Source: Candidatus Saccharibacteria bacterium CPR2 (GTDB lineage: Bacteria > Patescibacteriota > Saccharimonadia > Saccharimonadales > QWHN01). From it: a stretch of 64,000 nucleotides of DNA. The stretch lies in NCBI GenBank assembly GCA_021404905.1, contig QWHN01000001.1, forward strand, positions 194,162 through 258,161, in the 5' to 3' direction. Below, in pieces: positions 1 through 20,779 of this stretch. A program made the translations under genes and the position numbers. Under the pieces are notes generated by a model, which saw only the letters and a list, made by a program, of their open reading frames with translations, was not told the DNA's origin and made no database searches. Positions within the stretch are counted from its first letter, which is position 1; each line of letters opens with the position of its first letter.

Positions 1-660
1 CTGGATTCAATAATCGAGCAAATCGACCCAAGTTATCACAACACCAGGCTAAGATATAAAAAGGTACTTTTCCAGCGAAACCAATATCTTAAAAAAAATA
101 TTCATTCAAAAAAAGACGATATATTTGTTTGGGACCTACAGCTTAGTAGTCTTGGTTCTGTTATTTCCAAAAAAAGGGAGCATATCATAAACCAAATCAA
201 CAAAACATCAGGTAAAGTTTATAGCCTAATAAGTCAAAAAAAATCAGAACTAAAAATTGTTTATAAGCCAAACTTGTCGGCGCAAGACTATTCGACAACT
301 ATGCTTAATCTTCTGAGCAAGGACCTGGAACAAGACACATTGAGGGGTTTTACCAGTATTGGGCCACATCGAGATGATTTTGAGGTATTTTTAAATAAAA
401 ACAACGTTTTATCAAGTGCTTCCAGGGGTGAAACTCGAACAATTATTCTTGCGCTAAAGCTTATTGAGCTATCAATACTGGAAGATCTAACGGCGCGAAA
501 ACCTCTTTTATTGCTGGACGATGTTTTTAGTGAACTTGATGGAGCCCGCCGCCAAGCACTTACCAAATATCTAAAAGATTACCAAACTATTATCACCACA
601 ACCGACGCCGACGCCGTTCTGGACCACTTTATGTCTGATTACAAAGTCATTCCTTTATAA
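1..660 (+). CDS. recF: DNA replication/repair protein RecF, 3' part (5' end lies outside the window)
   Basis: Frame 1 is open from nt 1 with no stop. C-terminal RecF/SMC-like motifs are present: GPHRDDF, SRGETRT (signature-like) and LLLLDDVFSELD (Walker B/D-loop). Confidence 0.85.
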   Translation: MDSIIEQIDPSYHNTRLRYKKVLFQRNQYLKKNIHSKKDDIFVWDLQLSSLGSVISKKREHIINQINKTSGKVYSLISQKKSELKIVYKPNLSAQDYSTTMLNLLSKDLEQDTLRGFTSIGPHRDDFEVFLNKNNVLSSASRGETRTIILALKLIELSILEDLTARKPLLLLDDVFSELDGARRQALTKYLKDYQTIITTTDADAVLDHFMSDYKVIPL

Positions 661-665
661 GCGCC

Positions 666-2210
666 CTAATCCACCACTCCTTCACTATTTTGAGAAAACC
701 CTGGATTGTCTAATTCATTATCCGCCGGTGAAAATATTATGTTCATTTCTGAGGAATTAATACCGTTTGAATTTAGGTAATCTAACGCTTTTTGCCTGTA
801 AGTTTTGGTGTTCGATACATATTGAGGAAATTGCGAATCTCTATTTAAGATTGCATTAGTGGTAATTAAAAGAGTAGGCTTGTCGCCAAAATGTACAACA
901 TCAATGTTATATTCGTTGTTTTGAGTTGGTAAGCTAGTAGAAATTGTCTCTTCAACCCCACCACTATTATTTGGCTCCAAGATTATTTTATATATCCCAG
1001 TTTCATTGGAGGCATTCCTTCGAGTGGTTATATATATAGCATTCATCTCTGGCGCACTATAAGCATTGGTAATATCATATTCATTAACAGTAGCCTTAAT
1101 AATTCTTTTTGAGTAACCCGAAGACAAATCAAACTTCCACAAACCCTCTTCGTCGGAATAAAGTATTTCAGAACCCGATCGCCAAAACATAAAATGTACC
1201 GGAGAGTGTACTTGTTTTACTATGGCGTTGTTATTGTCTGTGTCGATTACAGTCATTAGGCCTGTATTTGTGACATAAGAGAAATACTTACTATCACCTG
1301 ACCAACTGGCACCAAAAATCGGTGTTTGAAAATCCGCCTTTGCCCCTGTGGACACATTAATAATTGAACTGGTTGAGTTTGCCTCTTCTTGCGCATCGGG
1401 TGTCTCGCTTGCGGAATAAATAAAAATCTTATTGTTCTTTAGCTTGATCTCGTCTATATAACTGGGCACTAAACCTAAATCCTTGGGTTGCTTGTCTTGA
1501 ACCCCGTAAAACACCAATATCCTGCTATCAATAGTTATGACTGCAAAGGAATTATTGTCAGGGTCAACACTAAAGTCTTTGTATCCAATCACATCTCCTT
1601 CGTCCCAATCCCCTTCACGCTCCAGTATAAGACTAGATTTTTCGCTGGTCGCATCAAAGTAATGCAATGAGCCATATTTATCCAGATACAACGAAGAGCC
1701 ATCGTTGAACCATTCCGAATCTTGCACAATGCCATCTCCGCCAATTCGCCTTGGTTGATAATGATTTTTGAGTAATTCATAAAAATAATCGTCGTCACTT
1801 TTTTGATATCGCAGAACATCGTTTGATGCAAAAACACTGTCAGCTTCTTTGTTGATTACAACTTGCTTTTGCGCAAAACTATAAGGAGGAGTGTCCACGA
1901 CAGATTTACTGGAACGCTTCGCACTAATAATAATTTCATTTATTTGCCCGTCTGGTTTCTCGACCCTTATTTCATATTCCCCCGGGCGTACCCGCATATT
2001 GGCATTTTCTTTTTTTATTTCGCTTTGATCACTTATTAATCCATTTTGTGAGAGCCTAGCGACTTTAATAAGCGACCCCTTGTCATGGGTTGTTATTTCA
2101 ATCTTTGCCTTTAGAAAAAAATTATCTATAACTAAAAAAACTATAATCAACACAAGCGTTAACAACACTGCAAAAACAAGTACGCGTTTCTTGTTGCTCA
2201 TACTTTGCAT
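666..2210 (-). CDS. Hypothetical N-terminally membrane-anchored/secreted protein, possibly beta-propeller (PD40/TolB-like repeats)
   Basis: 514-aa ORF with an AGGAGG-type RBS. It has an N-terminal hydrophobic helix (VLVFAVLLTLVLIIVFLVI) and repeat-like segments such as SWSGDSKYFSYV. It is the last gene of the minus-strand T4SS-like operon. Confidence 0.5.
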   Translation of the reverse strand: MQSMSNKKRVLVFAVLLTLVLIIVFLVIDNFFLKAKIEITTHDKGSLIKVARLSQNGLISDQSEIKKENANMRVRPGEYEIRVEKPDGQINEIIISAKRSSKSVVDTPPYSFAQKQVVINKEADSVFASNDVLRYQKSDDDYFYELLKNHYQPRRIGGDGIVQDSEWFNDGSSLYLDKYGSLHYFDATSEKSSLILEREGDWDEGDVIGYKDFSVDPDNNSFAVITIDSRILVFYGVQDKQPKDLGLVPSYIDEIKLKNNKIFIYSASETPDAQEEANSTSSIINVSTGAKADFQTPIFGASWSGDSKYFSYVTNTGLMTVIDTDNNNAIVKQVHSPVHFMFWRSGSEILYSDEEGLWKFDLSSGYSKRIIKATVNEYDITNAYSAPEMNAIYITTRRNASNETGIYKIILEPNNSGGVEETISTSLPTQNNEYNIDVVHFGDKPTLLITTNAILNRDSQFPQYVSNTKTYRQKALDYLNSNGINSSEMNIIFSPADNELDNPGFSQNSEGVVD

Positions 2211-2236: not shown

Positions 2237-4114
2237 TTATGGTAATTTTTCATAGGTTTCATATAATTTTGTAGGCAACTGTATCTTGTCGCTACCTTGT
2301 CTAAATAACGCCTGGTTTTCTGAAGGGCAACTTTCTCGTTTACAGGGTGGCCGCTTTTGTCCGGTGGCGGCATCAATGTGTAAGTGGGCTGAACCGCAGC
2401 CATTGCTTGCGGATCCTACTACGCCAATCTGGTCGCCAGCATTTACAGTTTGACCTTCTGTAACGGTTAGACCGTCAAAGGATAAGTGGAGATAAGACAC
2501 AACTACATCATTCTCTTGATTGTAGACTTCTACTAATCTTCCAGGACACTTATCTTCACCAAAACGCGTAACAGTACCACCTATTGATGCCAAAACTGGG
2601 GTCCCTGGAGTTGCCATAATGTCGTGAGCAGCATATGGATGGCCCCCCTCGCTCATTTTTCCATCTTTAAATTGCCCACCATTTTGAGATTCCATATCTG
2701 CTTTTGTGGTGTCTAGAGGAAACACAAAGTCCCCAGTCCCTACTTGTTGACCACACTCATCAGTAGCGCCTGCTCCCCCAAGCAGAGCCATGATTGTCAT
2801 TGCGCCGGCTTGTTTATTTACTTTTCCCTGAGTGCTACCTGGCTCAGATGCATTGCCTGGCCAAACCATGCCTTCTCCGTCACCCCCAGCATGCTCAGCA
2901 TCATAATAATTCATAGCATATGGTGATGTGTCTGGGTCTTGATTAACCCTCTTGTACATAAATCCTCTATTGTAAGCAACAAAGGCATCGCGCATTTCCT
3001 CAAAACTTGATGTGGCCGTCAATTCAATTCCGTATACCATTTTGGCCATTTCCTTTAAATGTTGTGCTCCGCGCTTATAGTTTTCGGTCTTATCTGTGGG
3101 CCATACATCGTTGCTATCTGGGTTTGATGATCCTAGTGGTTCACCAGAACCAATAGAAGCCCCAGGGTCATTGCCTGCTTCTCTATAATGTAGTGCAGCT
3201 AACATTTGCCATGGTATATTTTCTGCCTCCGCAGCTTCCTGATAATTTGGCTGAAGTTCTTTTATTGTTCCCTCTACTTCACTAAAAAGCTGTTTGCCTT
3301 TATCAGTAACAGAACTTCCGCTGAAATCAGCGGAACCGGCTTGGTTCTCTGGTGTTGTTCCAGCTCCTGGTGAAGGAGTCGCGCCCGGAGTATTTGTAGA
3401 CTGAGTTTTGTTTAGCTCCTCTCTTACCTGGGCCATAAATGTAGCTCCAGGGTCGCTATTACCCGGGTTTGCTTCATAATGACCAAAAACTCCTTTTTTT
3501 CCAGCTCTATCCGCTATATTTTGGATATTATATTTTGCCATTAGTTCTTTCACGACTCCGATTACGGTTTGAAACTGTGTAGGGTTTGAGAGTAGAGCAT
3601 TTTCATCCATGCCCTCAATTTCTATACCAATACTGACATCGTTCCATCCCTGGTCAGCCATAGTTTGCATTGGCCGAGTTTCCAAAGTATTGGTAAGTTG
3701 AAATAACTTTCCAGACGCATTTATAAACAACTGTACCCATCTACCGTTTGGGTAACCTGCTTCAACACGACTCTTTAATACATCAATAAGTTTTGTTGGA
3801 GGATCTCCATAATTATCACCCTGAGTAAAATGGAGCATTATCGCAGTTGGTTTGATCTGTCGCGTTTCTGAAAATGACCCAGTCATTACCTGAGCTTCTT
3901 CCAGAAAGTTTGTGTTTTGCTCATTGGCTGCTTCCGTACTTCCACATTCGTCAATGTCATAAAAATACGTGCCGCCATCATATAGCTTTTTTTGATCTTC
4001 GGACAATACGGCATAAGCAGGGATAGCATTAAAAAATAAGAACCCCAAAGCCACCACTAAAAAAATGACTCGATTTGAATGTTTAAATAAGTTATTCACT
4101 GCCCTGTGCCACAC
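2237..4114 (-). CDS. Secreted multidomain peptidoglycan hydrolase: N-acetylmuramoyl-L-alanine amidase (Amidase_2-like) plus C-terminal M23 (LytM-type) peptidase
   Basis: It has a signal/anchor helix. Amidase_2-like motifs are MLHFTQG, GIEIEG and GHYEANPGNSDPG. M23-like motifs are AAHDI...YLHLS...GSAHLHID. It overlaps the upstream gene by 19 nt. Confidence 0.7.
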   Translation of the reverse strand: MWHRAVNNLFKHSNRVIFLVVALGFLFFNAIPAYAVLSEDQKKLYDGGTYFYDIDECGSTEAANEQNTNFLEEAQVMTGSFSETRQIKPTAIMLHFTQGDNYGDPPTKLIDVLKSRVEAGYPNGRWVQLFINASGKLFQLTNTLETRPMQTMADQGWNDVSIGIEIEGMDENALLSNPTQFQTVIGVVKELMAKYNIQNIADRAGKKGVFGHYEANPGNSDPGATFMAQVREELNKTQSTNTPGATPSPGAGTTPENQAGSADFSGSSVTDKGKQLFSEVEGTIKELQPNYQEAAEAENIPWQMLAALHYREAGNDPGASIGSGEPLGSSNPDSNDVWPTDKTENYKRGAQHLKEMAKMVYGIELTATSSFEEMRDAFVAYNRGFMYKRVNQDPDTSPYAMNYYDAEHAGGDGEGMVWPGNASEPGSTQGKVNKQAGAMTIMALLGGAGATDECGQQVGTGDFVFPLDTTKADMESQNGGQFKDGKMSEGGHPYAAHDIMATPGTPVLASIGGTVTRFGEDKCPGRLVEVYNQENDVVVSYLHLSFDGLTVTEGQTVNAGDQIGVVGSASNGCGSAHLHIDAATGQKRPPCKRESCPSENQALFRQGSDKIQLPTKLYETYEKLP

Positions 4115-7044
4115 CTGTTAGCCATTGGTGCCGGATCCCAGTGCCATGGCTCATATGAATACTGTTTAAATCCAAATGATTCAGCGTTCTTCTCGAGCCA
4201 TACCCATCCCGGGTCTCCTGGAGCTCTAGCTCTCCCACTACAACTAGTTTTTGACCCACTCGCCGAACCTCCCATTTTTCCTCCTCCACCCGTTGCTAGA
4301 AAATCAATGGCGGTACCAGTTTGATGTAGCGATTGCCCTGGTTTAGCACACAAACCTCCATCACCAGTTCCGCCGCACGAATCGGCCAACCTAAAGGAAC
4401 TGGATGAGTTAAGTTGAATACCTTCAGCCTTTGCTTTTTCGCCCAAAGCTTGCCATGCTCCGGAAACCCTGGAATTGACTGTTGCCCCACCTGGCGTTTC
4501 GTTACCACTCGCATCGTTTCCCTCCCCCCCTATGCCACTCAGCCTGCACAAACGTATAACAAGGGGACCCGCGCTCTTTTTTAGGTCTCCGGTGTACTTT
4601 GTCTCCACTACACCCAAATCGGATGTGCCAGCAGCACATGGTACGGAATCTGAATTTTCACCTATGTCGCCTACGATGCCACCATCATTAGTTCCCATTG
4701 CTTCTGAAGAACTGCTTTCTACACCTAAATTCGCGCAAGCGCTATCGTCTATACTCTCATAACAAGCCATTGATTCGGCCACATAGCTGTCCATTACGAA
4801 AAACCTAAATCTTAAATAATCTTCATTATTTCTATCATCAAAACACTGGTCGGGAAGCTTTCTGTAGTCCATTGATTGTCCGGTTGTAATCTTAAATTCC
4901 GGAGCTGGTGACATTGAAATACCGAAACAATCCTTATATTTATCATAGAGATTTTGGATTTGCTCATCGCTCATAGAATTCATATTTTCTATTGGGTTTG
5001 CTACAGTTGGATTATCAAGCTCTTCTAAACTAAAACCATATTTGGAAAAACTGTATTCGTACTCTTCCTGAGCGTGAACCTTTCTTACGAAAGGAAGGTT
5101 TGAAAATGCTGAAGAAAATAATGAACTCGGTGTTTTGAATACGGAAGAGACCATTCCACTGTAAGACACAGGAGCTTGTCTGTAAGCGAAAGACATTAAT
5201 GAACGAGGGTTGGAAAGCGAGAAGGTTCTATACACAAACCCTTGTTCTTTTGCTATTCTGCTTATTTCTGCGTCTCTAACTTCATCCAGTTCAGCGGTTT
5301 CCTCTGGAGTTAATTTTCGCCCTCCTAACGTAACCGCTTGTTCGTTAGCAAATAGGCGCGTCCCGTAATTAAATGCGTTACCAAGGTCTGAACCCGTAAG
5401 GCTTTCAAGGTTGACTAATTTTTTACCAAAAGTTTCTATGACAAAGTCAAGTAACTTGGGAAAGAAAAATGCACCCGCAACTTCACCCAGAACCGTACTT
5501 GCTATTTTCCCTGCTCCGGTAGCAAATTCGGCTGCCGTAACTGCCCACTGAAATGCAGTGTTCTCAACTATTTTACACCCAATGCCCACACCAGGAATTG
5601 AGTTTATTATCTCAAGTACTTTATTTTGCTCGTCAGGGGGCTGTAAGTTTGCTGGCATATCAGGCCCAGTAAGCTCTTGCCCTAATTCCCCTTGTATACT
5701 CCTCGCGTTACTCCATGTCCTTTCATTGGACTCTTTTGATTCATCATAAAGCTTATTGGCGTAATACCCTAAAGAATCTAAATCAATATCATGGCCAGCT
5801 TGCGCCTGACTACCAAGAGCCATAAACTCACCACCCAGACGCATCAGCGGTAAGATTAAGTTTGGGTGAGCTGTAGAATCAATAGCCTCAATAACCCCCT
5901 TAATTGCGCATAAAGCACTGGCGATTCCTACTGCTCCAAGAGCCGCAAATCCACCCTTTTTAAAATCTGATTTTATATCTTCTAGTGTGTCTGGGTTTTT
6001 CGCACCACCAGCCGCTGCATCATCGTCGGCATTTGGTGTTTTGTTTCCGTCCTTATCCTCATCGCCATCCCCAACATAATCTGGTTTATCGTCTGTCTGC
6101 CCATTGGAAAGCGTGTCGTCTCTCTTTTTCTTTATTTTTTCCCAAACGTCAGAAAGCTTTTCATCCACCTTTCTGTCTAACTTTTTAATGGGATGAAGAG
6201 TGATACCAGCCTTTGCTTTCAAGGGGCGTCCTAGCATGGATGAAGCGATGCGGCCAGGGAAGGTCTTTGCCATAAATTTGTTTCTAAATTTGGAGAATTT
6301 TCTAGTAGAAAACATACTCTCGAACTGGGTTCTATCTATGTCTACAGCATTGCCATTAATATCAGCGTCGATATCAAACTCAGATTTAAGTTGTTTTTGA
6401 ATTTCCTCTGGGCTTTTGCCTCCGCTATCAAACGCATCGGGGTCAATTTTGACCTTATCTAAATAACCAGCCCTATTATATTCGAACTCTATTCCACTTG
6501 CCTTAAGCTTTGTTTCGTATCTTGTGGCAATAGCGTTTTGCAAAACAGTAAGTCGCCTGCCAGCCTTGTCGTTTGGATTTCTCATATATCTAATAAGCCT
6601 AGTTCCTCTATTTGCGATGGCTTCGTCATTTGAGAATAAATGAAACTGTTGTAGTAATTGAGAAATGTGAATAAATTGAAGGGGGCCGTGCAAAAAGCTG
6701 AACCCAAACATGGTTAGGCCGACAATTCCGCCACCAATGCCTCCGCCAATGATTTTCTTTTTGTGCCGCGCGTACCATTTTCCGGATTTGCCATCAGAAT
6801 CGTCATCATCTTCTACAACTTTTAATCCAGCATCCCTAGAGCTGGCTCCTCCGCCTTGTCCTTCGCCTTCAATGGAGTGCAGCTTCGCTCCCCGCCCGGT
6901 GTACTTAAAAGAATCTGCTTCCTCCGCTTCCCTCAGGTTACCACTTGGCGTACCATCACCCTTTCCACCCCCATGAATAACTTTTAATTTTGGTCTTTCA
7001 TGCGGGTTAAACTCTGGGTCGTATTTTCTAGCTGGTTCTGCCAT
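4096..7044 (-). CDS. Large membrane protein with a C-terminal VanY/M15-type (LAS) D,D-peptidase domain; T4SS-associated cell-wall hydrolase candidate
   Basis: 982 aa with an AGGAGG RBS. Gly-rich TM segments include IIGGGIGGGIVGLTMFGFSF. The C-terminus carries SLHQTGTAIDF and YEPWHWD, which match the LAS metallopeptidase signature. Confidence 0.6.
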   Translation of the reverse strand: MAEPARKYDPEFNPHERPKLKVIHGGGKGDGTPSGNLREAEEADSFKYTGRGAKLHSIEGEGQGGGASSRDAGLKVVEDDDDSDGKSGKWYARHKKKIIGGGIGGGIVGLTMFGFSFLHGPLQFIHISQLLQQFHLFSNDEAIANRGTRLIRYMRNPNDKAGRRLTVLQNAIATRYETKLKASGIEFEYNRAGYLDKVKIDPDAFDSGGKSPEEIQKQLKSEFDIDADINGNAVDIDRTQFESMFSTRKFSKFRNKFMAKTFPGRIASSMLGRPLKAKAGITLHPIKKLDRKVDEKLSDVWEKIKKKRDDTLSNGQTDDKPDYVGDGDEDKDGNKTPNADDDAAAGGAKNPDTLEDIKSDFKKGGFAALGAVGIASALCAIKGVIEAIDSTAHPNLILPLMRLGGEFMALGSQAQAGHDIDLDSLGYYANKLYDESKESNERTWSNARSIQGELGQELTGPDMPANLQPPDEQNKVLEIINSIPGVGIGCKIVENTAFQWAVTAAEFATGAGKIASTVLGEVAGAFFFPKLLDFVIETFGKKLVNLESLTGSDLGNAFNYGTRLFANEQAVTLGGRKLTPEETAELDEVRDAEISRIAKEQGFVYRTFSLSNPRSLMSFAYRQAPVSYSGMVSSVFKTPSSLFSSAFSNLPFVRKVHAQEEYEYSFSKYGFSLEELDNPTVANPIENMNSMSDEQIQNLYDKYKDCFGISMSPAPEFKITTGQSMDYRKLPDQCFDDRNNEDYLRFRFFVMDSYVAESMACYESIDDSACANLGVESSSSEAMGTNDGGIVGDIGENSDSVPCAAGTSDLGVVETKYTGDLKKSAGPLVIRLCRLSGIGGEGNDASGNETPGGATVNSRVSGAWQALGEKAKAEGIQLNSSSSFRLADSCGGTGDGGLCAKPGQSLHQTGTAIDFLATGGGGKMGGSASGSKTSCSGRARAPGDPGWVWLEKNAESFGFKQYSYEPWHWDPAPMANRCGTGQ

Positions 7045-7056
7045 TTTTACTGCCTC

Positions 7057-8976
7057 CTAAAAAATCTCTCCAGAAGCACCTTGATTGATTACTTGGTTTG
7101 GTTGAGTATTCTGAGAATGAAGATTGGTTGCGAGCTCTTGTATTTGTTGTAACTCGCTAGGGTTAGTAGTGATCAACGACTGTTCTGTTGGAGAAGCGAC
7201 AATCTGTAAATGCACATGGTTTTGCCCGGCGAACAACAAACCTTGACCGACAGGGAATTGGCTAAGACGCTTCTTTTCTTCGCTAGTAAGCTTAAATACC
7301 TCAGCCAGAACATCCACAGAAGAAGTAGACTGCTTCAGTAAAAGCTGCATAGACGAGTTGGCCACAACCGCGCGGCCTAGTTTTGAACCCATAAAATCTT
7401 CAACATCCTGAGAAATTGTAGTCAAACCCAAACTATATTTTCGGGCTCTTTTTGCCAGGCTAAACATAAACTGAGCTGAATCCTCGTAACGCATAAGTTG
7501 CCAAGCCTCGTCTATGATAAGGAGGCGTCTTTTTTGGTCGGTCTTTGTTTTATTCCAAATATAATTTAGGACTATATACATTGCCACAGGGCGCAGTTCA
7601 TCTTCGAGGTCGCGAATGTTAAACACAGCCAAAGAGTTATTGATATCAATATTTGATTGCTGGGAAAATATTCCGGCAAACGTGCCCGATGTGTATTTCC
7701 GCAGTCTTTGCGCCAGTTGCGGGCCAGTTCCCTGCATGTGCAAAAGGGTTTGATAAAGATCATTCATTGTTGGCGGGGGTGTATTGTGAGTAAGCGGGTC
7801 GCTGGTTATTCCTGCTTTAGCATAAGTTTCGATTAAAGCTTGATCTAGGTCTGCTTCTTCAACAGGGCTAAGTGCTGGCCCTAAAGACTCTCCGCCGGAA
7901 AGTTGTGCTTGGGCTCCACCCATCATCAATCTAAGCAACCCGTGCAGGGTGATGAGGTTTGACCTGAGCGCGTTATCTGCCTCTTCTTCGTCAATGACCC
8001 TTGGCAGGTCAAACGGATTGATTCGAGTTTGTGAATTTAAAGACAACCTTACATAAGCACCGCCGACCGCGTCACACAACCTTTGGTATTCATTTTCCGG
8101 ATCTACCACTATTACTTCCGCGCCAAACATCATGGTTCTTAGAGCCTCGAGTTTAACGGCGAAAGATTTTCCGGCGCCGGACTTTGCGAATACTACCGAG
8201 TTAGCATTTTCCAAAGTAAATCTGTCAAAAATCACTAAACCGTTGTTGTGCATATTAATTCCATAAAGAATCCCAGACTCTTGCGTTAAATCCGCGGAGG
8301 TAAACGGAAAGGTAGTTGAAAGGGCTCCGGTATTTAAATTGCGTTTAATTTGCAAAGTGTCAAATCCTTGTGGCGCGGTAGAGCTGAGCCCCTGCTCCAT
8401 CTGGACGGTGGCAGCTTTTGAATAAACCAACTGTTGGCCCAGTATTGTCTCGATTTTATGCTGGATATACTCTAGCTCCTCGAGAGAAAAGGCATAGATC
8501 GTTATATATAAAGCAAACCTAAAAAATCTTTCTTCTCCTACCTGAAGTTTATCGCGAAGCTCCTCGGCATCTTGGATGGCTGCTTGCTTGCCCGGGTCCC
8601 TAACCCTGCCTTTTTCGGAGTCAATTTGTATAGAAGCTTCAAGCTGGCCAACTTTTTTGCGTAAATTCTCAAGTACAATTTGACTTTCAACAGGATATAT
8701 AAACATAGATATATCGGTTTCTTCGTCGATATTTATAAGGGGTGACATCCATCCGGTGTATAGTTGCCTGGGATAGCCGAAAATATAGAGGGTTCTTCCA
8801 TATTTGGTTCCTAGTTTGAAGTGCCCCGACTCGAGCTCTATCGAACTAGGAGCGATGAAATCTCGAAGCGCGGTAATGCCTTTTTGAAACGCTTCCTCAA
8901 CCTCTATTTGCTCACGAGCTCGTTGCTCGGCAGCAACATCAACCGGTTCTGGTTTAACGGATTTAAACAAGCCCAT
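7057..8976 (-). CDS. virB4: VirB4/TraE-family type IV secretion ATPase
   Basis: Walker A is FAKSGAGKSF and Walker B is RRLLIIDEAW. The N-terminal domain is typical of Gram-positive VirB4 (FKLGTKYGRTLYIFGYP). A GAGGGGG RBS precedes the start. Confidence 0.9.
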   Translation of the reverse strand: MGLFKSVKPEPVDVAAEQRAREQIEVEEAFQKGITALRDFIAPSSIELESGHFKLGTKYGRTLYIFGYPRQLYTGWMSPLINIDEETDISMFIYPVESQIVLENLRKKVGQLEASIQIDSEKGRVRDPGKQAAIQDAEELRDKLQVGEERFFRFALYITIYAFSLEELEYIQHKIETILGQQLVYSKAATVQMEQGLSSTAPQGFDTLQIKRNLNTGALSTTFPFTSADLTQESGILYGINMHNNGLVIFDRFTLENANSVVFAKSGAGKSFAVKLEALRTMMFGAEVIVVDPENEYQRLCDAVGGAYVRLSLNSQTRINPFDLPRVIDEEEADNALRSNLITLHGLLRLMMGGAQAQLSGGESLGPALSPVEEADLDQALIETYAKAGITSDPLTHNTPPPTMNDLYQTLLHMQGTGPQLAQRLRKYTSGTFAGIFSQQSNIDINNSLAVFNIRDLEDELRPVAMYIVLNYIWNKTKTDQKRRLLIIDEAWQLMRYEDSAQFMFSLAKRARKYSLGLTTISQDVEDFMGSKLGRAVVANSSMQLLLKQSTSSVDVLAEVFKLTSEEKKRLSQFPVGQGLLFAGQNHVHLQIVASPTEQSLITTNPSELQQIQELATNLHSQNTQPNQVINQGASGEIF

Positions 8977-9132: not shown

Positions 9133-10077
9133 CTAATTCCCTTCTTGCAAATTCTTTCTAGGGGCTTCACCTTGGCCTTTAGTAACAATGGGGGTGCTGA
9201 GTTCGTCGTAGTTTTTTAGCTCTTCAGTGCTGGATGTGCCTGGGTTATAGAACGAATAATAAAGCTCAATTAACTCTTCGGTACTAAGCGGAACCGCTTG
9301 AATGCCTACATTAATCAAACTATTTACAACGCCTTGGACGCGATTTTTTAGCTCAGTCTTTGCTTTCTCGAGGTCTTGTTGATTAATATCTATAATCCTG
9401 GTAGTTTTTTTGAATTTAAAAATACTAAACACTTCATTCACAGCTTTTTTGCCCTTATTAAAGGCTTGCTTTGGATCAATAACTGGTGAGTACGGTACGA
9501 CAATGTAAAACTTTTTATCCATGATATTTGTTTGCTGCACTAGGTCCGTGATGAAGTAAATATAATCTTCCATTAATAGCGACAAAAGCATGTTTTCTTG
9601 GTCGTTTTTGGCTTTTTCCAGTTTCTCCAAGTATGGACGCATGTCGACTTTCTGAGAACGCATAAATATTTGAACTGTAAAATATAGCGAATTAAGAAAC
9701 GATTGATATGCGTATTCAACCGCTTCTCTCTCCTGTGGATTCATTAAGTCAAAGTTGATTGACTGAGCCATAATGACCGAACGGTAACTTCCATCATTCA
9801 TAATGACGAGCCCGTCGCGAATTTCGGCAATATCAAGATTGTTTTGAGTGCTGTTTTTATTGACGTTGGCAGGAACGACAGGTGCCCTTGCCGATGGTTT
9901 GATTTGTGGATTTTGAACGGCTGGCCTCTCCTGCGGAATGCTTTGAGGATTAAATTGTTGAGAGGGCGCAGGTTGTTGTGTTTGGGCGTCTGGTGCCTGC
10001 GTCGTCGGCTGAGATTGTACCGACGCGCCTTGAGACATTTGCTGATATGAGTTTTGATTCTGTTGATTAGGATCCAT
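9133..10077 (-). CDS. T4SS-associated protein: Q/P-rich N-terminus plus a domain resembling the N-terminal domain of Gram-positive VirB4, with no ATPase motifs
   Basis: 314 aa. The segment IRDGLVIMNDGSYRSVIMAQSINFDLMNPQEREAVEYAYQSFLNSL resembles the VirB4/TcpF N-domain pattern. No Walker motifs are present. It lies immediately upstream of virB4. Confidence 0.4.
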   Translation of the reverse strand: MDPNQQNQNSYQQMSQGASVQSQPTTQAPDAQTQQPAPSQQFNPQSIPQERPAVQNPQIKPSARAPVVPANVNKNSTQNNLDIAEIRDGLVIMNDGSYRSVIMAQSINFDLMNPQEREAVEYAYQSFLNSLYFTVQIFMRSQKVDMRPYLEKLEKAKNDQENMLLSLLMEDYIYFITDLVQQTNIMDKKFYIVVPYSPVIDPKQAFNKGKKAVNEVFSIFKFKKTTRIIDINQQDLEKAKTELKNRVQGVVNSLINVGIQAVPLSTEELIELYYSFYNPGTSSTEELKNYDELSTPIVTKGQGEAPRKNLQEGN

Positions 10078-10105: not shown

Positions 10106-11032
10106 CTAACGTAGCGGTATTTCTCCGTCACCTTTGAGTATATGTTCTGCCTCGTGGGCGACAGTGCTTACAGTTAGGTCGTCTCTATGTGCTAACGAGT
10201 CAAGTATATCAGTTGCGGCTTTCTCTGTCATTGTGCTTGTGGCTATAGAACTAACTTTCTTTTCTTTTTTTATATTTTGACGGTCAGCATAAGGAGAAAC
10301 TACTTTTTGTTGCATCTTAGGGTATGGGCTAAATAAGGGTGATGTTTCCTCTTGGGTTGGGTAACTTTGCGCCTGGGGGAGCGAGTTGGGCCTAACTGAC
10401 ATGGGGTTTTTGCCAGAGAGCTGTTGCTCTATTTGCTGCCGTGATTTTGCCGCACTTTCATTAATAAGGCTAGACATATTGCTGGCGGCTTGTGTGCTTT
10501 CTATATCCGTAACATCATCACTTACAACCATGCCCACCGGCTGTGGTATTTGGGGAAGTTCATTAATTGCGATCAAACGATCTTCGTCATTTGAACTTGA
10601 AAGCTGCATAACATTTTTTGTCGACCATCCATGCGTATCCATGACAAGAGCCAGGTTTTTTAGCTTGCTCCTGGCTTCGCTTTTACTGAGACTGTTAGGG
10701 TTTATTTTTTCTTTTTTTGGCGCTGTTATGTTAACTAGCTCGACTATTCCATCCTGGCTCCAAGTTTTTTTCCTGGGCAAAAGCCAAAATCGCAAGAGTG
10801 CGGCTAGATATATTTCCACTGGCTGATCTTCTCGTCGAAAAACTGCCAGGAAACCGAAAAATAGCGCGAATGGCAGGGGCAAGGATATAAGTGCGGGGTG
10901 GACTTGGAAAAACACAAAAGTTAAATATCCAAAAAAAACGGCTATTAATGCAAAAATAAACTGCTTGAAAGTCAATGGGCCAACAAGCTTATCTTCAGCC
11001 TCAACATCCTGAATCACCTTATAAGTAGCCAT
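10106..11032 (-). CDS. PrgI-family (VirB3-like) T4SS membrane protein with a long C-terminal extension
   Basis: From Met30 the protein reads MATYKVIQDVEAEDKLVGPLTFKQFIFALIAVFFGYLTF, the PrgI-like pattern, followed by two TM helices. The 29 codons upstream in the ORF track are read through a repeat element and are probably not coding. Confidence 0.65.
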   Translation of the reverse strand: MATYKVIQDVEAEDKLVGPLTFKQFIFALIAVFFGYLTFVFFQVHPALISLPLPFALFFGFLAVFRREDQPVEIYLAALLRFWLLPRKKTWSQDGIVELVNITAPKKEKINPNSLSKSEARSKLKNLALVMDTHGWSTKNVMQLSSSNDEDRLIAINELPQIPQPVGMVVSDDVTDIESTQAASNMSSLINESAAKSRQQIEQQLSGKNPMSVRPNSLPQAQSYPTQEETSPLFSPYPKMQQKVVSPYADRQNIKKEKKVSSIATSTMTEKAATDILDSLAHRDDLTVSTVAHEAEHILKGDGEIPLR

Positions 11033-11190
11033 AAGGATTAGTATATAGTATGGAGTATAGAGTATGAAGTATGAAGTATGGGCGTTGGAAAATAGCAATT
11101 GGGAACTAGCAATTGGCAATTAGAAACTGGAAATTAGTTTTTAAAAATATACTATTTTCTATTTTCTAATTGCTATTTTCCAATTGCTAG
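11033..11190. repeat. Inverted heptamer-array element, copy E1
   Basis: In-phase 7-bp units (agtatga, tagcaat, tgggaac and similar) flank the centre tagtttttaaaaatatacta. The exact 22-mer is at 11142-11163. The element fills the whole intra-operon spacer. Confidence 0.9.
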
Positions 11191-13616
11191 CCCCCGTTCC
11201 CGCCGAACATAGACCTATAGGCATCTATAAATGAGCGCATTTCGCGTACAGCTTCCTGGGCGGATTGGGTATATCCAAGTGGCTGGTTTGTATCTGGGTC
11301 TCTTTCTGTACCAGTCATGGTTCTTTCGGTTGCCTGAACTGCTTTTTCGTAGAGTCCTCTTACTTGCAACCCAAAATCTGAATTTAAGTCAATTCCCTCA
11401 AGGTCGTGACTCTCAATCATGCCACTGGTAGCGTAGCGCCAAAATGATCCGCTTTGCCGCCCAAGCGCGTATGAATCTACGGATCTGTCAACAAACTCTG
11501 TCATACTCTTAAAGCTTTTAACTAGCTTTTGAGGAGGCAAGTTCATAGGAGTGGGAACTGAAGCATCGTGAGCTGGCCTCTGAGCTTTAAAGTAATCGCC
11601 ACGGTCATAAAATTTGTGTTGAAGCTGAGTGTCTTTGTTGTTATACCAAACACCCTCGGCAATTTCGTTTTTAACATCTGGCTCCCATTTGCTGGCACGT
11701 AATCCTTCCCAAACTCGGGTTTGGTCTTCCTCAGTCAGAGATTTACTCATTGCATAATTTAATGCAGCCTGAAGTTTGCCGCGGCTTATGCCATGGCTTT
11801 TTACCTGAGCCATCAGCTCGTCATTATAGAAGTCGCTTTTTGTGGCAAGGCCAGCTTCTTCCCACCTGCCTTCAGCACGATTATAACTTCCCAGCATGGC
11901 AGCGCCATTTCGGGTCATAATGCTTCCGTCGGGGTTATATAAAAAGTGCTTACCCATCTTTAAATAACCCGAATTTGCTGTTCCGCCATCAGCAGTACCA
12001 ATTTTGGTGCCCTTATACCGTCCGCCTCCAGTCATTGCTATTGCGCGCACCACATCATCGTGTCCGGTTCCAATAATCTCGCTTGCCCATTTTTGCCCCT
12101 CGCTCAAATCGTTAATTAAACCAGCGCGGTTATTAATTCCGGGTACTCTGTTCATCAAAGTTCTAACGGGTAAGTAACGACTGTTTGGTATTCCCATAAA
12201 TCTTTTTTCTCCACGCATGGCTCGGCCGATCTCCCTGGATCTGTGAGACCTAACCTTGCTTCTGAGAGAATTTGGATCTCTATGGTCGCCTTTAACTTTA
12301 TCCCCAGCGCCTCTAAGGACATTACCCAGCGCAGCGACACCCGCGCCAGCCCATTTAAACGTTGCGGTCATGAGGAAAAACGGCGCGAAGGTCGCGATAA
12401 AACCTATTGAAGTATCCACAAAATTTGTGTTTTCTCCAGCAATAGCCAAACGGCCCATTAGTTGACCGGCAGAGATAAGCACCACGATTATTGGGTACAT
12501 AAGCAAAGCTTTAAAAAATATACTCCACCAGGTTTTAAAATATTGCTCGGTGTTTGGGAGGATCCACAAAACAAATGCCACCGGCGCGACGACCATTAAT
12601 GAAATAATGATTAGATTTCTGAGGATTAAGACTACAAAAAGAATAATTAGGCCTGTGATTCCAGCCAGGAACAATGCCAAAAAGAAATAATAAAGCGCAT
12701 AGCCAATAGCAATAACACCCGGAATAGCCAAAACATTAGTGAGCATAATGTCAAAGGCTTCATTTCCGCTTATGCCGGTTTCGGTAAATAATTTATTGCC
12801 GTTGTTACTAAAAAGTCCGGAAATTTCAAACTGAGCCATTCCATCCAATGGAGCCATGACTAGCTGGCCCACTCCCGCGCCAAGCGTATTAACCATATTA
12901 ACTGTTAGCGTTACGACCACGAAAGACAGTTGAATAAGAATAGAGCCAATTAAAAGTCGTGGTAGCATTTTTTTAACATTGTATGTTTCAAGGATAGAAC
13001 CCGTTGCCTGGGCGTAAATTATAAACATAAACACGATAATGATGGCCACGTTTGCCAAAACGCGAAAACCATTCCAGACTTTTTCCAAAGAGTCTCCATA
13101 TTTGTCTAGGTCAAGTTCAAGCAAATTAAAAACGACATTTTCCATCAACCACCTCATGGCGCTGTAAATTGGGCGCAAGACGGCGCACAGTAGCCAGCCC
13201 ACCGGACCGGCATTGCTTTCACAAGTACTCTCTTGCGGTTTGTTATCTGTGCTTAAAACCTCCGTATTTGAAATTGAAATTGTTTGAGGCGGACCGATTG
13301 CGATGCAGGGTTGCCCGTCTCGATACACATAGAGCGCTCCAGAAGCGGGGTTGTTTGCTGATATAACAATTTCGTTCGGGCAGGTCACACCAGACTGTGA
13401 GCGAAATTTTTGTCTGTCGTCGCTGGTTTGTTTATATTTTTCGTTACCCCAAATGATGGTTTGTGAGTCCGCCCACCTCGGGCTTGAATTGTTTTGAGCG
13501 CTAACGGGACCAGAAAAAAGAAAGGTGTTTAAAATTGCAAAAACAAAGAACGCAGACAAAACTGTGCCGGAAAACTTGCTGAATTTACCCCATTTTTTCG
13601 GGGCGGCAATTTTCAT
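11187..13616 (-). CDS. VirB6/TrbL-like polytopic T4SS membrane protein, paralog B
   Basis: 809 aa with a signal peptide, a small Cys-containing ectodomain, about 6-7 TM helices and a C-terminal tail of about 350 aa. It shares the blocks WNGFRVLANV and KKMLPRLLIGSILIQLSF with the 15552-18482 protein. Confidence 0.65.
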   Translation of the reverse strand: MKIAAPKKWGKFSKFSGTVLSAFFVFAILNTFLFSGPVSAQNNSSPRWADSQTIIWGNEKYKQTSDDRQKFRSQSGVTCPNEIVISANNPASGALYVYRDGQPCIAIGPPQTISISNTEVLSTDNKPQESTCESNAGPVGWLLCAVLRPIYSAMRWLMENVVFNLLELDLDKYGDSLEKVWNGFRVLANVAIIIVFMFIIYAQATGSILETYNVKKMLPRLLIGSILIQLSFVVVTLTVNMVNTLGAGVGQLVMAPLDGMAQFEISGLFSNNGNKLFTETGISGNEAFDIMLTNVLAIPGVIAIGYALYYFFLALFLAGITGLIILFVVLILRNLIIISLMVVAPVAFVLWILPNTEQYFKTWWSIFFKALLMYPIIVVLISAGQLMGRLAIAGENTNFVDTSIGFIATFAPFFLMTATFKWAGAGVAALGNVLRGAGDKVKGDHRDPNSLRSKVRSHRSREIGRAMRGEKRFMGIPNSRYLPVRTLMNRVPGINNRAGLINDLSEGQKWASEIIGTGHDDVVRAIAMTGGGRYKGTKIGTADGGTANSGYLKMGKHFLYNPDGSIMTRNGAAMLGSYNRAEGRWEEAGLATKSDFYNDELMAQVKSHGISRGKLQAALNYAMSKSLTEEDQTRVWEGLRASKWEPDVKNEIAEGVWYNNKDTQLQHKFYDRGDYFKAQRPAHDASVPTPMNLPPQKLVKSFKSMTEFVDRSVDSYALGRQSGSFWRYATSGMIESHDLEGIDLNSDFGLQVRGLYEKAVQATERTMTGTERDPDTNQPLGYTQSAQEAVREMRSFIDAYRSMFGGNGG

Positions 13617-13636: not shown

Positions 13637-14242
13637 TTATTCACCTAAAAGGCGATTTATTTCGTCCTCAATTCTTTGTTCTTCTTCTGGAGTTAGGCAA
13701 CCGTTTTCTACGTCAAAGTCGAGCATCAATGAGGCAGTATTAGTTAGATTTTCCCTTTTTCTTGAGTCTTCAGTAACTTTCGCTTCATCTATAACGTTGC
13801 TAACTTGCCCCTCCGCGTCGTGGCAGATCGCGTCATTTTCCGGCGCGGTCACTTGGCTTTTATCGATTTCGTTGCCGTTAACGCCGGTGACAGTATCCTC
13901 TTGTTTGTCATTATCGTCAGTGCAAGCTCTCAGACCACTGAAAAGCACTAATGCGCCAGCGACAGCCACCGCACCGATCTTCACTCTCTTTTTTGTGTAA
14001 GCTATTTGCTTTTCTTTTTCTTCCTTTGCTTGTTGCTCATCTTTCTTCTTTTTCTCTACTGCGATAGCATACTCAATAGCCTCTTTATCAAGCTTAGCGG
14101 GGTCAACTTCGGCGTTGCGTGGGTCTCTTACCACCTCTCTATAGGCATCGCTATCTCTGAGTTCTTTTAGGCGAGCCTTTCGAGCTTTTTCTACAGCGTC
14201 TCTCGCGTCTTTATCTGGATCATGATTTGCTTTTTCAGCCAT
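13637..14242 (-). CDS. Hypothetical single-pass membrane protein with a K/E-rich N-terminus
   Basis: 201 aa with an AAGGAA RBS and one TM helix (IGAVAVAGALVLFSGL). I recognised no motif. Confidence 0.5.
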   Translation of the reverse strand: MAEKANHDPDKDARDAVEKARKARLKELRDSDAYREVVRDPRNAEVDPAKLDKEAIEYAIAVEKKKKDEQQAKEEKEKQIAYTKKRVKIGAVAVAGALVLFSGLRACTDDNDKQEDTVTGVNGNEIDKSQVTAPENDAICHDAEGQVSNVIDEAKVTEDSRKRENLTNTASLMLDFDVENGCLTPEEEQRIEDEINRLLGE

Positions 14243-14486
14243 TTTTTCGTTCCTTATTTAAACTACTAAATATCTTAGGAGCATGCGAAATAAATCGAGC
14301 GAAGTCTTGGCTAAAGACAAGTCTTTGCGATCAATCTCACAAGCCGGCACAAGTAAACCAACCCCCAGAGGTCGAACACATATATTTCTATCACAAAACA
14401 GAGGTAAAGTCAAACGACTATCTATAATTCGCTGAAGACACCCAAAACAATACTAGGGCAGCATAATCACTAGTCCAACCCAGAGT

Positions 14487-15452
14487 TTATCTGCTGTAGC
14501 CTGTTTCGTCTGTGTTGTGAGGAGGATGTGAGGAATATACTAAACGGGGCTTGTTTTTTCTGCGATGGTTTGCAACTTCTGTTTTTGTTATTCTGGTCGC
14601 AACTTCCTGATTGTGTTTTTCTTGAATCGGTATGTCGTCGCCTCTATGTCTTTCATTCGGGGTTTTTGATCGAATGGTAACATCAACAGGACTAATGCCG
14701 ACGAAACCTTCCTGTTTTGTCCAGAGTGGCTCACCCATGCGTCTTCCACGTGCCAAAACAGTTGTTTTCACTAAAGCTCTTTCGGTTTTCTCTCTTCGTT
14801 TTCTGGCTCTTTTTTGTACAAAATCTTCCCCAGTAGTTATCCAAGTGCGAGTAGCTTGATCCTTTGCCTTTTTAAGTTCTCTGTGGGATATTTCACCTTT
14901 TCTGAATTTTTCTCTTGCAGATTTTGTTATTGCTCGTCGAGCTTTCCAAGTCTCAATTCTTTTTACGGGGCCACTTTTTTCGGATCGGCCGACATTTGCC
15001 CACCTTTCGTATTCTTTTGCTTTTGCGAGTTTCTCGGTATCTTTCTCTAATCTTCTGTGTGCTCGTTGTTGATACCGTGTCTCGGGCGCAAGGGTGAGCT
15101 CGGGGTAGTCATTGTCAGTAAGCTTACTCTCAACCCTTGAACGGGCAACATAAAGGAGGTTATCAAAATATTCTTTGTCTTGCTGCGCTTTCTCGGGGTC
15201 AGAGGGGCTAGTTAGCCATTTACCAACTTTCTTGGCGCCGTTTATGGCTCTGTCTATTGCAACCTGGCCTAAAAACTTTTTTTCTTGTTCTTGAAAACTA
15301 TCATTCATTATGTCGGTCATTGGTTCGGTAGCAGGGTCTTGACCAATTTCATTTAACAGAAGCATAGTTGGGCTATGCTCAAGTCCTTGGGGGTTGGTAT
15401 TTTGAGATTCTATTGTCTCTGGGTTGGTAAGTTGTTCTTGACTGTGTGGCAT
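14487..15452 (-). CDS. Hypothetical highly basic (K/R-rich) soluble protein
   Basis: 321-aa ORF inside the T4SS-like operon, with no TM segment and no recognisable motif. Confidence 0.45.
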   Translation of the reverse strand: MPHSQEQLTNPETIESQNTNPQGLEHSPTMLLLNEIGQDPATEPMTDIMNDSFQEQEKKFLGQVAIDRAINGAKKVGKWLTSPSDPEKAQQDKEYFDNLLYVARSRVESKLTDNDYPELTLAPETRYQQRAHRRLEKDTEKLAKAKEYERWANVGRSEKSGPVKRIETWKARRAITKSAREKFRKGEISHRELKKAKDQATRTWITTGEDFVQKRARKRREKTERALVKTTVLARGRRMGEPLWTKQEGFVGISPVDVTIRSKTPNERHRGDDIPIQEKHNQEVATRITKTEVANHRRKNKPRLVYSSHPPHNTDETGYSR

Positions 15453-15551
15453 TTTTGTTTTTGGTTAGTTTAACAACATAATAGCATATTATTGCGCTAA
15501 AGGCAATATTAAGTTTCAGCCAGAGTTTAGGAGTATAAAAACCATCGTTAT

Positions 15552-19605: not shown

Positions 19606-19670
19606 TAAACATCTTCCTTTTTTCAATGCGCTTTAATTATACCATATTAATGCTTAAAATCCAATACCAA

Positions 19671-19751: not shown

Positions 19752-20180
19752 ATGAAAAATATTATTTCGGTTTTGATAGTTTCCTTCGGGATGTTTTTTG
19801 TGCTGAATTTTGGGTTGGTGGCAAACGCTGGTTCTATCCAGGCTGTGCATCAATATGGAGTATTTAATCCAGACAATTGCCCAAAAGACGGTGCCCAAGT
19901 TCCAGTTGAACAGAATTGTATAATCACCGAAATCCTGGTGCCGATAGTAAGATTTTTATTAGTTGGGGTTGGGGTTGTTGTCACGGTTATGATCGTACTT
20001 GGCGGGATTCAGTACTTAACATCAGAAGGCAATCCTCAACGAATCGCGGCGGCGAAGTCAAAAATAATGAATGCACTCATCGCTCTTTTAATCTGGGCAT
20101 TTATGGGCTTAATCCTAAACTGGCTGATTCCTGGTGGCATACTTAATATTGGTTTGGGTAACGACATTCCTAATCTATGA
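19752..20180 (+). CDS. T4SS pilin (VirB2/TrbC-like), paralog 1
   Basis: It has a signal peptide, a Cys pair (NCPKDG...QNC) and two TM helices joined by GGIQYLTSEGNPQRIAAAKSKI. The stop overlaps the next start (ATGA). Confidence 0.7.
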   Translation: MKNIISVLIVSFGMFFVLNFGLVANAGSIQAVHQYGVFNPDNCPKDGAQVPVEQNCIITEILVPIVRFLLVGVGVVVTVMIVLGGIQYLTSEGNPQRIAAAKSKIMNALIALLIWAFMGLILNWLIPGGILNIGLGNDIPNL

Positions 20181-20779
20181 CTATTCAACCTTTTGTACTA
20201 TTTGCTCAGCAGTGCGCCGATAAATCTATATTTGGCATTCCAACCTGGTATAAATATTTAAACTGTACAAATGGTGTCCCCGACATAGACGCGACCACCC
20301 AGGAGGGGCTTAACTCTGTTTGGCTTATAGGCGCCGCGGTGCTTGAGATGTTAATGGTTGTGGTGGGTATTGCCTCTGTTGCGATGATAATCTACGCCGG
20401 TTTAAAATTTATTATGAGTCAAGGCAACCCAGAACACGTCAAACAAGCTCGTGATACCATTTGGAATGCGATAATTGGGCTTGGAATCGCGTTGATCGCC
20501 TCAAACTCTGTGTCTTACGCTGCCAATCAACTTTATGGAAAGCCTGCGGACCAAAGCACAATAACGGCTGTTATTTTACCTTTTGTGTTTCGTCTGGCCG
20601 GCGCCCTGGCGGTGCTGTACATAGTTATATTCGGCGCCCTCAGATACATTATGTCTGGCGGCAATCCTAACGACACCAAACAGGCAAGGGACGCGATAAT
20701 TTATGGATTAATAGGCATAGCCGTAATAGTCACGGCTTATTTAATAGTTCAATTCGTAGTTGGGAGGCTTACCTCGTGA
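20177..20779 (+). CDS. Tandem-duplicated T4SS pilin carrying two VirB2-like modules in one ORF, paralog 2
   Basis: The pilin motif occurs twice: YAGLKFIMSQGNPEHVKQARDTIWNAIIG and FGALRYIMSGGNPNDTKQARDAIIYGLIG. There are four TM helices and an N-terminal Cys pair. Confidence 0.7.
   Translation: MTIQPFVLFAQQCADKSIFGIPTWYKYLNCTNGVPDIDATTQEGLNSVWLIGAAVLEMLMVVVGIASVAMIIYAGLKFIMSQGNPEHVKQARDTIWNAIIGLGIALIASNSVSYAANQLYGKPADQSTITAVILPFVFRLAGALAVLYIVIFGALRYIMSGGNPNDTKQARDAIIYGLIGIAVIVTAYLIVQFVVGRLTS

Follow-up and report, generated by a model that had tools for sequence, protein, structure and literature searches.

In a 64,000-nt stretch of the genome of Candidatus Saccharibacteria bacterium CPR2 (contig QWHN01000001.1, positions 194,162 to 258,161; the whole stretch is called the window here), two overlapping genes on the minus strand encode HydA, a predicted secreted protein with three modules, and HydB, a large protein with a predicted membrane anchor. 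We are confident, though short of certain, that the pair is the peptidoglycan-hydrolase cassette of a Saccharibacterial type IV secretion system (T4SS) of the monoderm type. It shows the features by which T4SS hydrolases are recognised: a place in the operon next to virB4, an export signal or anchor, and a peptidase combined with a probable glycan-cleaving module. What is new here is that the enzyme modules of this cassette are swapped from lineage to lineage; the literature that we searched contained no functional study of these enzymes and no account of their modular diversity, which is not proof that none exists. Both open reading frames (ORFs) that an initial annotation had placed on the minus strand were confirmed at their coordinates from the ORF list. 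The pair consists of the following parts, with residues numbered as in the 625-aa and 982-aa ORFs:

2237..4114, minus strand: HydA, secreted three-module putative peptidoglycan hydrolase, 625 aa from the GTG at 4114 (ORF and domain matches)
4010..4114, minus strand: HydA signal peptide, aa 1-35, with hydrophobic core 16-34 and cleavage motif AYA↓V (hydrophobicity scan, and motif read from the sequence)
3446..3853, minus strand: HydA Amidase_2 module, aa 88-223, putative N-acetylmuramoyl-L-alanine amidase with candidate Zn ligands H95, H212 and D221, and E165
2774..3319, minus strand: HydA middle module (type-I), aa 266-447, probable divergent lysozyme/SLT-like glycosidase with candidate catalytic E312
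2360..2653, minus strand: HydA M23 metallo-endopeptidase module, aa 488-585, with H492-x5-D498, H543 and H577-x-H579
4096..7044, minus strand: HydB, membrane-anchored, 982 aa, Saccharimonadia-specific scaffold with a C-terminal VanY-type peptidase
6754..7044, minus strand: HydB N-terminal low-complexity region, aa 1-97, probably cytoplasmic (predicted local distance difference test, pLDDT, 24-41; poorly conserved in alignment A2)
6691..6753, minus strand: HydB Gly-rich transmembrane segment, aa 98-118 (hydrophobicity), followed by an invariant GPLQFIH at aa 120-126
4645..6690, minus strand: HydB scaffold, aa 119-800, with a long helix (95-155) and hydrophobic helices 367-385 and 514-536
4120..4644, minus strand: HydB VanY/LdcB-type (M15B) peptidase, aa 801-975, with R885, H907, D914, E965 and H968

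The reading of HydA as a secreted protein with an Amidase_2 domain and a C-terminal M23 domain, put forward in the initial annotation, is borne out by its N-terminal signal and by two Pfam scores above their cutoffs. Amidase_2 (PF01510) matches aa 88-223 with 42.7 bits (cutoff 26; profile positions 4-130 of 131), and Peptidase_M23 (PF01551) matches aa 496-583 with 52.6 bits (cutoff 28.7). The AmpD region of NCBIfam aligns to aa 111-182, further NCBIfam matches are to ShyA and MepM-type proteins, and among the PHROGs HydA matches endolysin, amidase and metallo-endopeptidase families. H95, E165, H212 and D221 are kept in the 11-13 homologs that bear Amidase_2. The Zn-ligand and catalytic roles of these four residues are presumed from family knowledge and not from a structure.

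For the M23 module the PDB sequence matches include LytU, StM23, DipM, LytM and ShyA, and Foldseek aligned the HydA model with ShyA, DipM, LytM and lysostaphin at E values of about 2e-7 to 1e-5. The AlphaFold2 (AF2) model has a pLDDT of 85-92 in this part. The SAHLHID stretch contains the HxH motif (H577/H579), and H492, D498, H543, H577 and H579 are kept in all 12-13 M23-bearing homologs. The first motif is H492-x5-D498 instead of HxxxD, with Y494 at the position of the canonical His. The H(x)nD spacing varies within M23, with n=3 in LytM, n=7 in gp13 and n=12 in LasA (PMC9662197). Since H492 lies two residues upstream and the other motif residues are kept family-wide, a degenerate M23 module, as the Tyr might suggest, was dismissed.

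The second protein had been described as a fusion of Gly-rich transmembrane segments, a region of about 700 aa without assignable function and a VanY/M15-type domain, and this description stands. The VanY profile of Pfam (PF02557) matches HydB aa 900-969 with 38.3 bits (cutoff 25) and covers positions 59-127 of 132, while the N-terminal half of the domain is covered by a phmmer alignment to 4mph/4jid that starts at aa 861. A HydB-family profile found VanY, VanYB, YodJ and LdcB in the PDB at E values of 2e-7 to 3e-3 through region 866-963, and Foldseek gave a weak match to BaLdcB. SLHQTGTAIDF corresponds to SxHxxGxAxD (S905, H907, D914) and EPWHWD to ExxH (E965, H968). Between these two motifs lies a poorly modelled Gly/Ser-rich loop (aa 916-944). 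R885, H907, D914, E965 and H968 are kept wherever proteins of the family bear a VanY-type domain. Thus the three motifs that the initial annotation had read by eye in the two proteins are real catalytic motifs, kept in homologs with the same domain, and the domain searches with hidden Markov models (HMMs) that it had suggested bore out the domains, whose catalytic residues are intact. Its assignment of a D,D-peptidase holds for the VanY/M15B family; the D,D-specificity is not established, as the HydB-family profile fits the DD-carboxypeptidase VanY and the LD-carboxypeptidases LdcB and YodJ about equally.

The body of HydB (aa 119-800) had no match in Pfam, NCBIfam, PHROGs, PDB sequences or PDB folds, the fold search being weak evidence because the AF2 model has a mean pLDDT of 60. 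The Gly-rich hydrophobic helix 98-118 runs on into a long helix to residue 155. The best-kept stretch of the scaffold, G-P-L-Q-F-I-H (aa 120-126; 6667-6687, minus strand), follows directly on the first transmembrane helix. Five cysteines are invariant in the HydB family (alignments A2 and A5): C379, which is inside a hydrophobic helix, C706, C734, C761 and C770. The scaffold family is large: with residues 1-832 as query, exhaustive HMMER searching found 1,045 clusters (50% identity) at E<=1e-3, of which 549 remain at E<=1e-30.

Between the two recognised modules of HydA lies a region for which a glycosidase-like function had been suggested, and this suggestion is probably right. We judge it rather more probable than improbable that the module, here called type-I, is a divergent enzyme of lysozyme/SLT-like kind that cleaves glycan strands and uses E312 as catalytic acid, but it cannot be shown to belong to any curated family. 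Here the positional evidence is stronger than the sequence evidence, which is weak but points one way. In orthologs the middle slot is occupied mostly by the phage-tail lysozyme PF18013 and otherwise by SLT/SLT_2 (L007, L027), Glucosaminidase (L014, L001) or an Rpf-like transglycosylase (L022). The type-I module itself returns in L010, where the protein in the HydA position consists of a signal peptide, type-I and M23 (hmmsearch E 4.7e-17). AF2 models the module as all-helical with a pLDDT of 83-94. In a shallow alignment of the module from 8 homologs (A3), W302, H309, R311, E312, N382-R383-G384 and Y387 are invariant, as is A380-Y-N-R-G384, and E312 lies at the C-terminal end of helix 302-313 of the model. 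Sub-threshold matches to the SLT family occur in 3 of the 8 type-I members (best E 5.7e-4), confined to profile positions 64-101 with the AYNxG part, and residues 282-320 of the NCBIfam MltF model align to HydA aa 279-319 (E 0.029).

Fold searches were made with the whole of HydA, so that M23 matches dominate the lists and fold support for type-I comes from multi-domain alignments only. Such alignments extend over 351 columns to phi29 gp13 (3csq), far beyond the M23 part, over 379 columns to a viral 'lysozyme/metalloendopeptidase' and over 341 columns to a gp13-type morphogenesis protein. Other searches with type-I gave nothing of use: the profile found only spurious matches among PDB sequences, tblastn found nothing in phages, and in plasmids it gave non-significant marginal matches (E 0.04-0.6), some of them annotated 'lytic transglycosylase/C40 peptidase'. 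A homolog search with the 180-aa module alone returned nothing, although 8 full-length homologs carry it, which reflects a word-index limit. That the module is a diverged PF18013 lysozyme was considered and rejected, as hhalign of A3 against the PF18013-type modules of the orthologs (A4) gave a probability of 0.6% and Pfam gave no match.

The two genes are tightly joined. A GTG at 4099-4097 overlaps the TGA stop of HydB (4098-4096) as GTGA, as read from the window sequence, and the database protein P0001, which is 99% identical to HydA, has 620 aa and begins at this codon. Because of this overlap and the length of P0001, HydA probably starts at the GTG at 4099 and has 620 aa; the overlap of the two genes is therefore probably 4 nt and not 19. 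The GTGA stop/start overlap, together with the lack of a Shine-Dalgarno sequence of HydA's own, suggests that HydA is translationally coupled to HydB. HydB and the following 514-aa gene have strong Shine-Dalgarno sequences, and the stop codon of virB4 falls inside the ribosome-binding site of HydB. The surrounding genes of the window are:

7057..8976, minus strand: VirB4-like ATPase of the CD1110 family (NCBIfam 374 bits, cutoff 325)
9133..10077, minus strand: TrsD/TraC-N-like protein, upstream of virB4
10106..11119, minus strand: PrgI/VirB3-like protein, upstream of the TrsD-like gene
11187..13616, minus strand: 809-aa polytopic protein in the VirB6 position (L001 and L003 have the same order, and their large protein matches TrbL_3)
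20177..20779, plus strand: T4SS pilin (PF18895 T4SS_pilin), divergent
666..2210, minus strand: 514-aa protein with N-terminal transmembrane helix, no family, in the same operon
274..660, plus strand: 3' end of recF, convergent with the operon

This operon is a chromosomal, origin-proximal, monoderm MPF-FATA-like T4SS, a type that has been described for Patescibacteria and in which VirB8 is not recognisable (PMC12102498). Saccharibacterial T4SSs have no relaxase and are thought to export proteins (PMC10633639; PMC12102498). The initial annotation had set the pair against classical T4SSs with a single VirB1-type lytic transglycosylase. This is the wrong yardstick: the CD1110-type VirB4, PrgI and TrsD-like proteins are those of MPF-FATA systems, in which multi-domain hydrolases are the norm, for example PrgK with LytM, MUR/SLT and CHAP domains or TraG with SLT and CHAP (PMC12102498, PMC11323569). 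Nor is the pair at the distal end of its operon, as had been thought, but next to last. The 514-aa gene, 24 nt 3' of HydA, carries a strong GGAAGGAGG ribosome-binding site; its Pfam matches are weak and beta-propeller-like. An ORF of equal length follows the HydA homolog at the same place in L005, and the gene occupies the slot of SEML1_0005/0004 in Candidatus Southlakia epibionticum ML1. From the VirB6-position gene to the pilin gene (13637-19626, minus strand), four ORFs of 201, 321, 976 and 336 aa have no Pfam match.

The order virB4, scaffold-hydrolase, secreted hydrolase was found in 24 of 24 loci with assignable modules. In every locus read, a VirB4-sized ORF (with VirB4 domains where annotated) precedes a HydB-like and then a secreted hydrolase gene, and recF-dnaN-dnaA comes next after the cassette wherever the contig is long enough. 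The gene order from recF through the secreted hydrolase, the scaffold protein, virB4, the TrsD-like gene and prgI to the VirB6-like gene is shared with L001, L003, L004 and L005. Among species-representative genomes, 23 loci were found by a pattern-based scan that used an alignment of 7 sequences, as one of 18 sequences did not have enough conserved stretches; a scan of this kind, with just 23 loci, can only give a minimum for the taxonomic range. All but two are in metagenome-assembled genomes of Saccharibacteria/Saccharimonadia, the two exceptions being labelled Babeliales and, in one case, Patescibacteria group only. The former, L018 (DATIIZ010000027.1, labelled Candidatus Babeliales), holds a complete virB4-HydB-HydA cassette and is probably mis-binned.

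While the order of the cassette is constant, its enzyme modules are not. The C-terminal tails of 147 HydB-family representatives were classed with single-pass HMMs from trimmed seeds and Pfam checks; classing by single-linkage clustering or iterated HMMs was abandoned, because linkers shared between tails contaminated the classes. The 7 tails in which GDSL is joined by another module are counted in the GDSL row as well as in the VanY-type, LAS type-2, M23 and Amidase_2 rows, so that the sum exceeds 147:

VanY-type: 61
LAS type-2 (H-x6-D...HxH, no Pfam match): 32
M74/LAS-like: 8
M14: 6
NlpC/P60-CHAP-like: 6
EEP + CHAP: 1
M23: 6
GDSL: 12 (5 alone, 7 combined)
Amidase_2: 4
Unassigned: 18

The LAS type-2 tail, of about 115 aa with H-x6-D...C-x-H-x-H ('SxHYxGxAVD...CNHIHIQV'), makes up about 22% of the HydB family (P0030, P0034, P0036, P0044 and about 28 others) and is, judging from its motifs, probably an unannotated family of LAS-type metallopeptidases. 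Some scaffold tails fall outside the classical peptidoglycan hydrolases: GH16 glucanase-like in L023, beta-lactamase/PBP-like in L026, and EEP nuclease/phosphatase with CHAP in P0175. In 3 loci the HydB tail has no assignable enzyme module, and two of these proteins are almost tailless.

The protein in the HydA position carries a lysozyme-like module in 21 of 24 pairs and M23, a Cys-peptidase or Amidase_2 in 19 of 24, and extra modules are GDSL, GH3, esterase and beta-lactamase-like. The largest set was seen in L008 (9567-13415), whose 1,282-aa protein in the HydA position is a six-module enzyme with GDSL, GH3, esterase (BD-FAE), PF18013 lysozyme and M23 beside a signal region. The number of distinct module classes per pair ranges from 1 to 6 with a mode of 3; the window pair has 4, which is above average but not exceptional. 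In none of the 24 pairs was the same module class present in both genes, against 1.5 expected (P = 0.17, not significant), and this avoidance is a trend, not a finding.

Sequence identities show that modules were exchanged recently, even between close relatives. The M23 module of HydA is 73-75% identical to those of P0002, P0003, P0004 and P0006, in which the upstream modules differ or are absent. Its type-I module is 81% identical to that of P0002 and 70% to that of P0003, whereas P0004-P0006 have an unrelated module instead. The closest Amidase_2 modules are those of P0007 and P0008 (59-62%), and the M23 modules of these proteins are just 32-36% identical to that of HydA. The unrelated middle module of P0004, P0005 and P0006 ('YYINMRWRY...VLVTNP...') is a third type with no Pfam match, and the M23 modules there are 65-75% identical to that of HydA. 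P0002 has an unassigned N-terminal module (aa ~60-250) instead of Amidase_2, in which Pfam is silent; because of SLT-like motifs read there by eye ('AAQSYQES...GPMQL'), P0002 may carry two glycan-cleaving modules.

We propose that HydB is anchored in the membrane of the epibiont by its Gly-rich helix and would hold its VanY/LdcB-type zinc peptidase outside the cell, with the scaffold perhaps acting as a stalk or providing a dock for the T4SS. Translational coupling would keep HydA in a fixed ratio to HydB, and HydA would be exported by Sec. Its amidase acting on the bond between N-acetylmuramic acid (MurNAc) and L-Ala, its divergent lysozyme/SLT-like glycan cleaver and its M23 endopeptidase could then divide the work with HydB, making local cuts in glycan strands, between glycan and stem peptide, and within the peptides. 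Through these cuts the T4SS channel and a VirB2-like pilus may pass the wall, the epibiont's own and possibly that of the Actinobacterial host at the contact site.

Several observations weigh against a T4SS cassette with this set of activities. HydB and HydA are counterparts of SEML1_0007 and SEML1_0006 of Ca. S. epibionticum by position and architecture, not by sequence alignment. The pLDDT of AF2 is just 50-80 over the Amidase_2 part of HydA and hence of low confidence, the best score of the type-I module alone against Pfam SLT (PF01464) is 17.8 bits, under the cutoff of 21.3, and the hydrophobicity of HydB allows 1 or 3 transmembrane helices. Of the three PrgK domains, the muramidase alone shows activity in vitro and is modulated by the other two (PMC11323569). 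By analogy, some modules of HydA and HydB could be regulatory or binding modules in spite of their intact motifs. Since one of three PrgK domains is active in vitro, stacked domains are no proof of stacked activities; of the three different peptidoglycan-cleaving chemistries ascribed to the pair in the initial annotation, the three enzyme families are therefore upheld but not the stacking of their activities.

In the initial annotation the pair had been likened to a tool for breaching a foreign or thick cell wall, which is plausible, but whether the epibiont's own wall or that of the host is cut is not decidable from the sequence. It is possible, but to our mind rather doubtful, that the pair is a lysin arsenal with the Actinobacterial host wall as its main substrate, opened at the attachment site for insertion of the pilus or channel or for nutrient uptake, and that the modules are exchanged to suit host peptidoglycan chemotypes. 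The likeness of HydA to multi-domain phage virion lysins and to PHROG endolysin families would fit such a role, as would the mosaic of modules between close relatives with its fast turnover, the at least nine types of HydB tail and the accessory GH16, GH3, GDSL and beta-lactamase-like modules. SEML1_0006 and SEML1_0007 are moreover essential for epibiotic growth of Ca. S. epibionticum ML1 in transposon sequencing (Tn-seq) (PMC10633639). However, essentiality is equally explained by T4SS assembly through the own wall, and the donor-wall hydrolases of conjugative monoderm T4SSs are likewise multi-domain and phage-lysin-like. The diversity of modules could track variation of the Saccharibacterial wall instead, HydB is tethered to the epibiont membrane, and no cell-wall-binding or host-targeting domain was identified in the pair. 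More speculatively, and unlikely as it stands, the HydB scaffold might be a stalk docked on the T4SS that holds out an exchangeable enzyme where epibiont and host meet, perhaps in place of the missing VirB8. HydA would be a multi-tool like a phage-tail lysin, and the repertoire would help to set the host wall chemotypes that can be used.

The tight and invariant coupling to an upstream VirB4-sized ORF in all loci read makes it improbable that the pair are housekeeping autolysins which remodel the wall for growth, budding and daughter-cell separation and merely lie beside the T4SS near the origin. Amidase_2, M23 and LD/DD-carboxypeptidases are typical of growth and division (PMC9662197), the genes are near dnaA, where highly expressed genes cluster, and essentiality of the orthologs would fit as well. 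Yet the HydB scaffold was seen in this context only, the lysozyme-plus-peptidase architecture matches T4SS hydrolases, and rapid replacement of modules is unusual for core division enzymes. The bacteria-killing T4SS of the Xanthomonas type has peptidoglycan hydrolases among its effectors. HydA and HydB are likewise encoded in a T4SS operon, of a system thought to export proteins (see above), but that they are antibacterial effectors injected into a neighbouring cell is very improbable. The classical Sec-type signal peptide of HydA and the membrane anchor and conserved scaffold of HydB argue for Sec export rather than T4SS translocation; the Pfam/NCBIfam scans showed no effector signal domain, and nothing resembling an immunity gene was identified next to the pair.

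No T4SS before the Saccharibacterial one had been reported as essential to the survival of its own bearer (PMC12857230, PMC10633639), and the hydrolase pair is part of that essential cluster. If the modules are matched to the chemistry of the host wall, their repertoire would be a host-range predictor for uncultured Saccharibacteria that can be read from sequence, and the question of self or host wall could be addressed by simple zymograms. Three large families without annotation also emerge from the survey, namely the HydB scaffold, the type-I lysozyme-like module and the LAS type-2 tail. To a specialist in T4SSs or Saccharibacteria the pair itself will be no surprise; what it offers is a concrete way to test whether module repertoire and host wall are linked.

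The closest known system is that of the cultured relative Ca. S. epibionticum ML1. In its gene table (PMC10633639 supplementary tables), SEML1_0003 is recF and SEML1_0004 and SEML1_0005 are two small exported proteins. SEML1_0006 (643 aa) combines a glucosaminidase, a PF18013 phage-tail lysozyme and a cysteine-peptidase fold, and in SEML1_0007 (1,113 aa) a C-terminal Hedgehog/DD-peptidase fold is the sole assignable part (PMC10633639). Then follow VirB4 (SEML1_0008), an unassigned protein (SEML1_0009), PrgI (SEML1_0010) and a VirB6-like protein (SEML1_0011; PMC10633639). SEML1_0006 and SEML1_0007 were annotated from structure and lie directly downstream of virB4 (PMC10633639; PMC12102498). Both organisms thus share the order recF, small exported proteins, secreted hydrolase, protein of about 1,000 aa, virB4, TrsD-like, prgI and VirB6-like. 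In both, 700-900 aa of the large protein cannot be assigned, and the secreted protein is made up of three modules. Because the window order matches this table, the general arrangement is already published; it is known from the one cultured relative and from a mention in one survey. HydA differs in that it carries Amidase_2 and M23 with an unclassified SLT-like module between them. The window pair is a domain-swapped variant of the tabulated arrangement, in which two of three HydA modules differ from those of the S. epibionticum protein and one belongs to no curated family.

With PrgK (pCF10), TraG (pIP501) and CwlT (ICEBs1) the pair shares an operon of the MPF-FATA type, an N-terminal anchor or signal, and peptidase modules combined with a lysozyme-like glycan cleaver, in HydA a probable one. 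It differs from them in that the function is spread over two genes, in the large lineage-specific scaffold with a VanY-type domain in HydB, in Amidase_2, and in belonging to a chromosomal T4SS without relaxase and with pilins. The M23 module of HydA keeps its catalytic motifs, while the LytM domain of PrgK is degenerate. The MUR domain of PrgK is homologous to gp13 (PMC11323569), and HydA as a whole likewise has its best structural matches among phage proteins: a Gordonia phage GMA6 lysin, lysozyme/metalloendopeptidase, phi29 gp13-type morphogenesis, ejection/internal and tape-measure proteins. In phi29 gp13 (3csq) and the cyanophage A4 pre-ejectosome (9k2v), a lysozyme-like domain is followed by M23, as is the probably lysozyme-like middle module of HydA, and the H(x)nD motif is non-canonical, with n=7 in gp13 (PMC9662197) and n=5 in HydA. 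HydA differs from these virion lysins in its place outside a virion, its extra N-terminal amidase and its Sec signal, and no relation to PF18013 could be detected in the sequence of its middle module. Finally, HydB shares SxHxxGxAxD, ExxH and the upstream Arg with VanY and LdcB (M15B), but it carries this domain at the C-terminus of an 800-aa membrane scaffold encoded in a T4SS operon.

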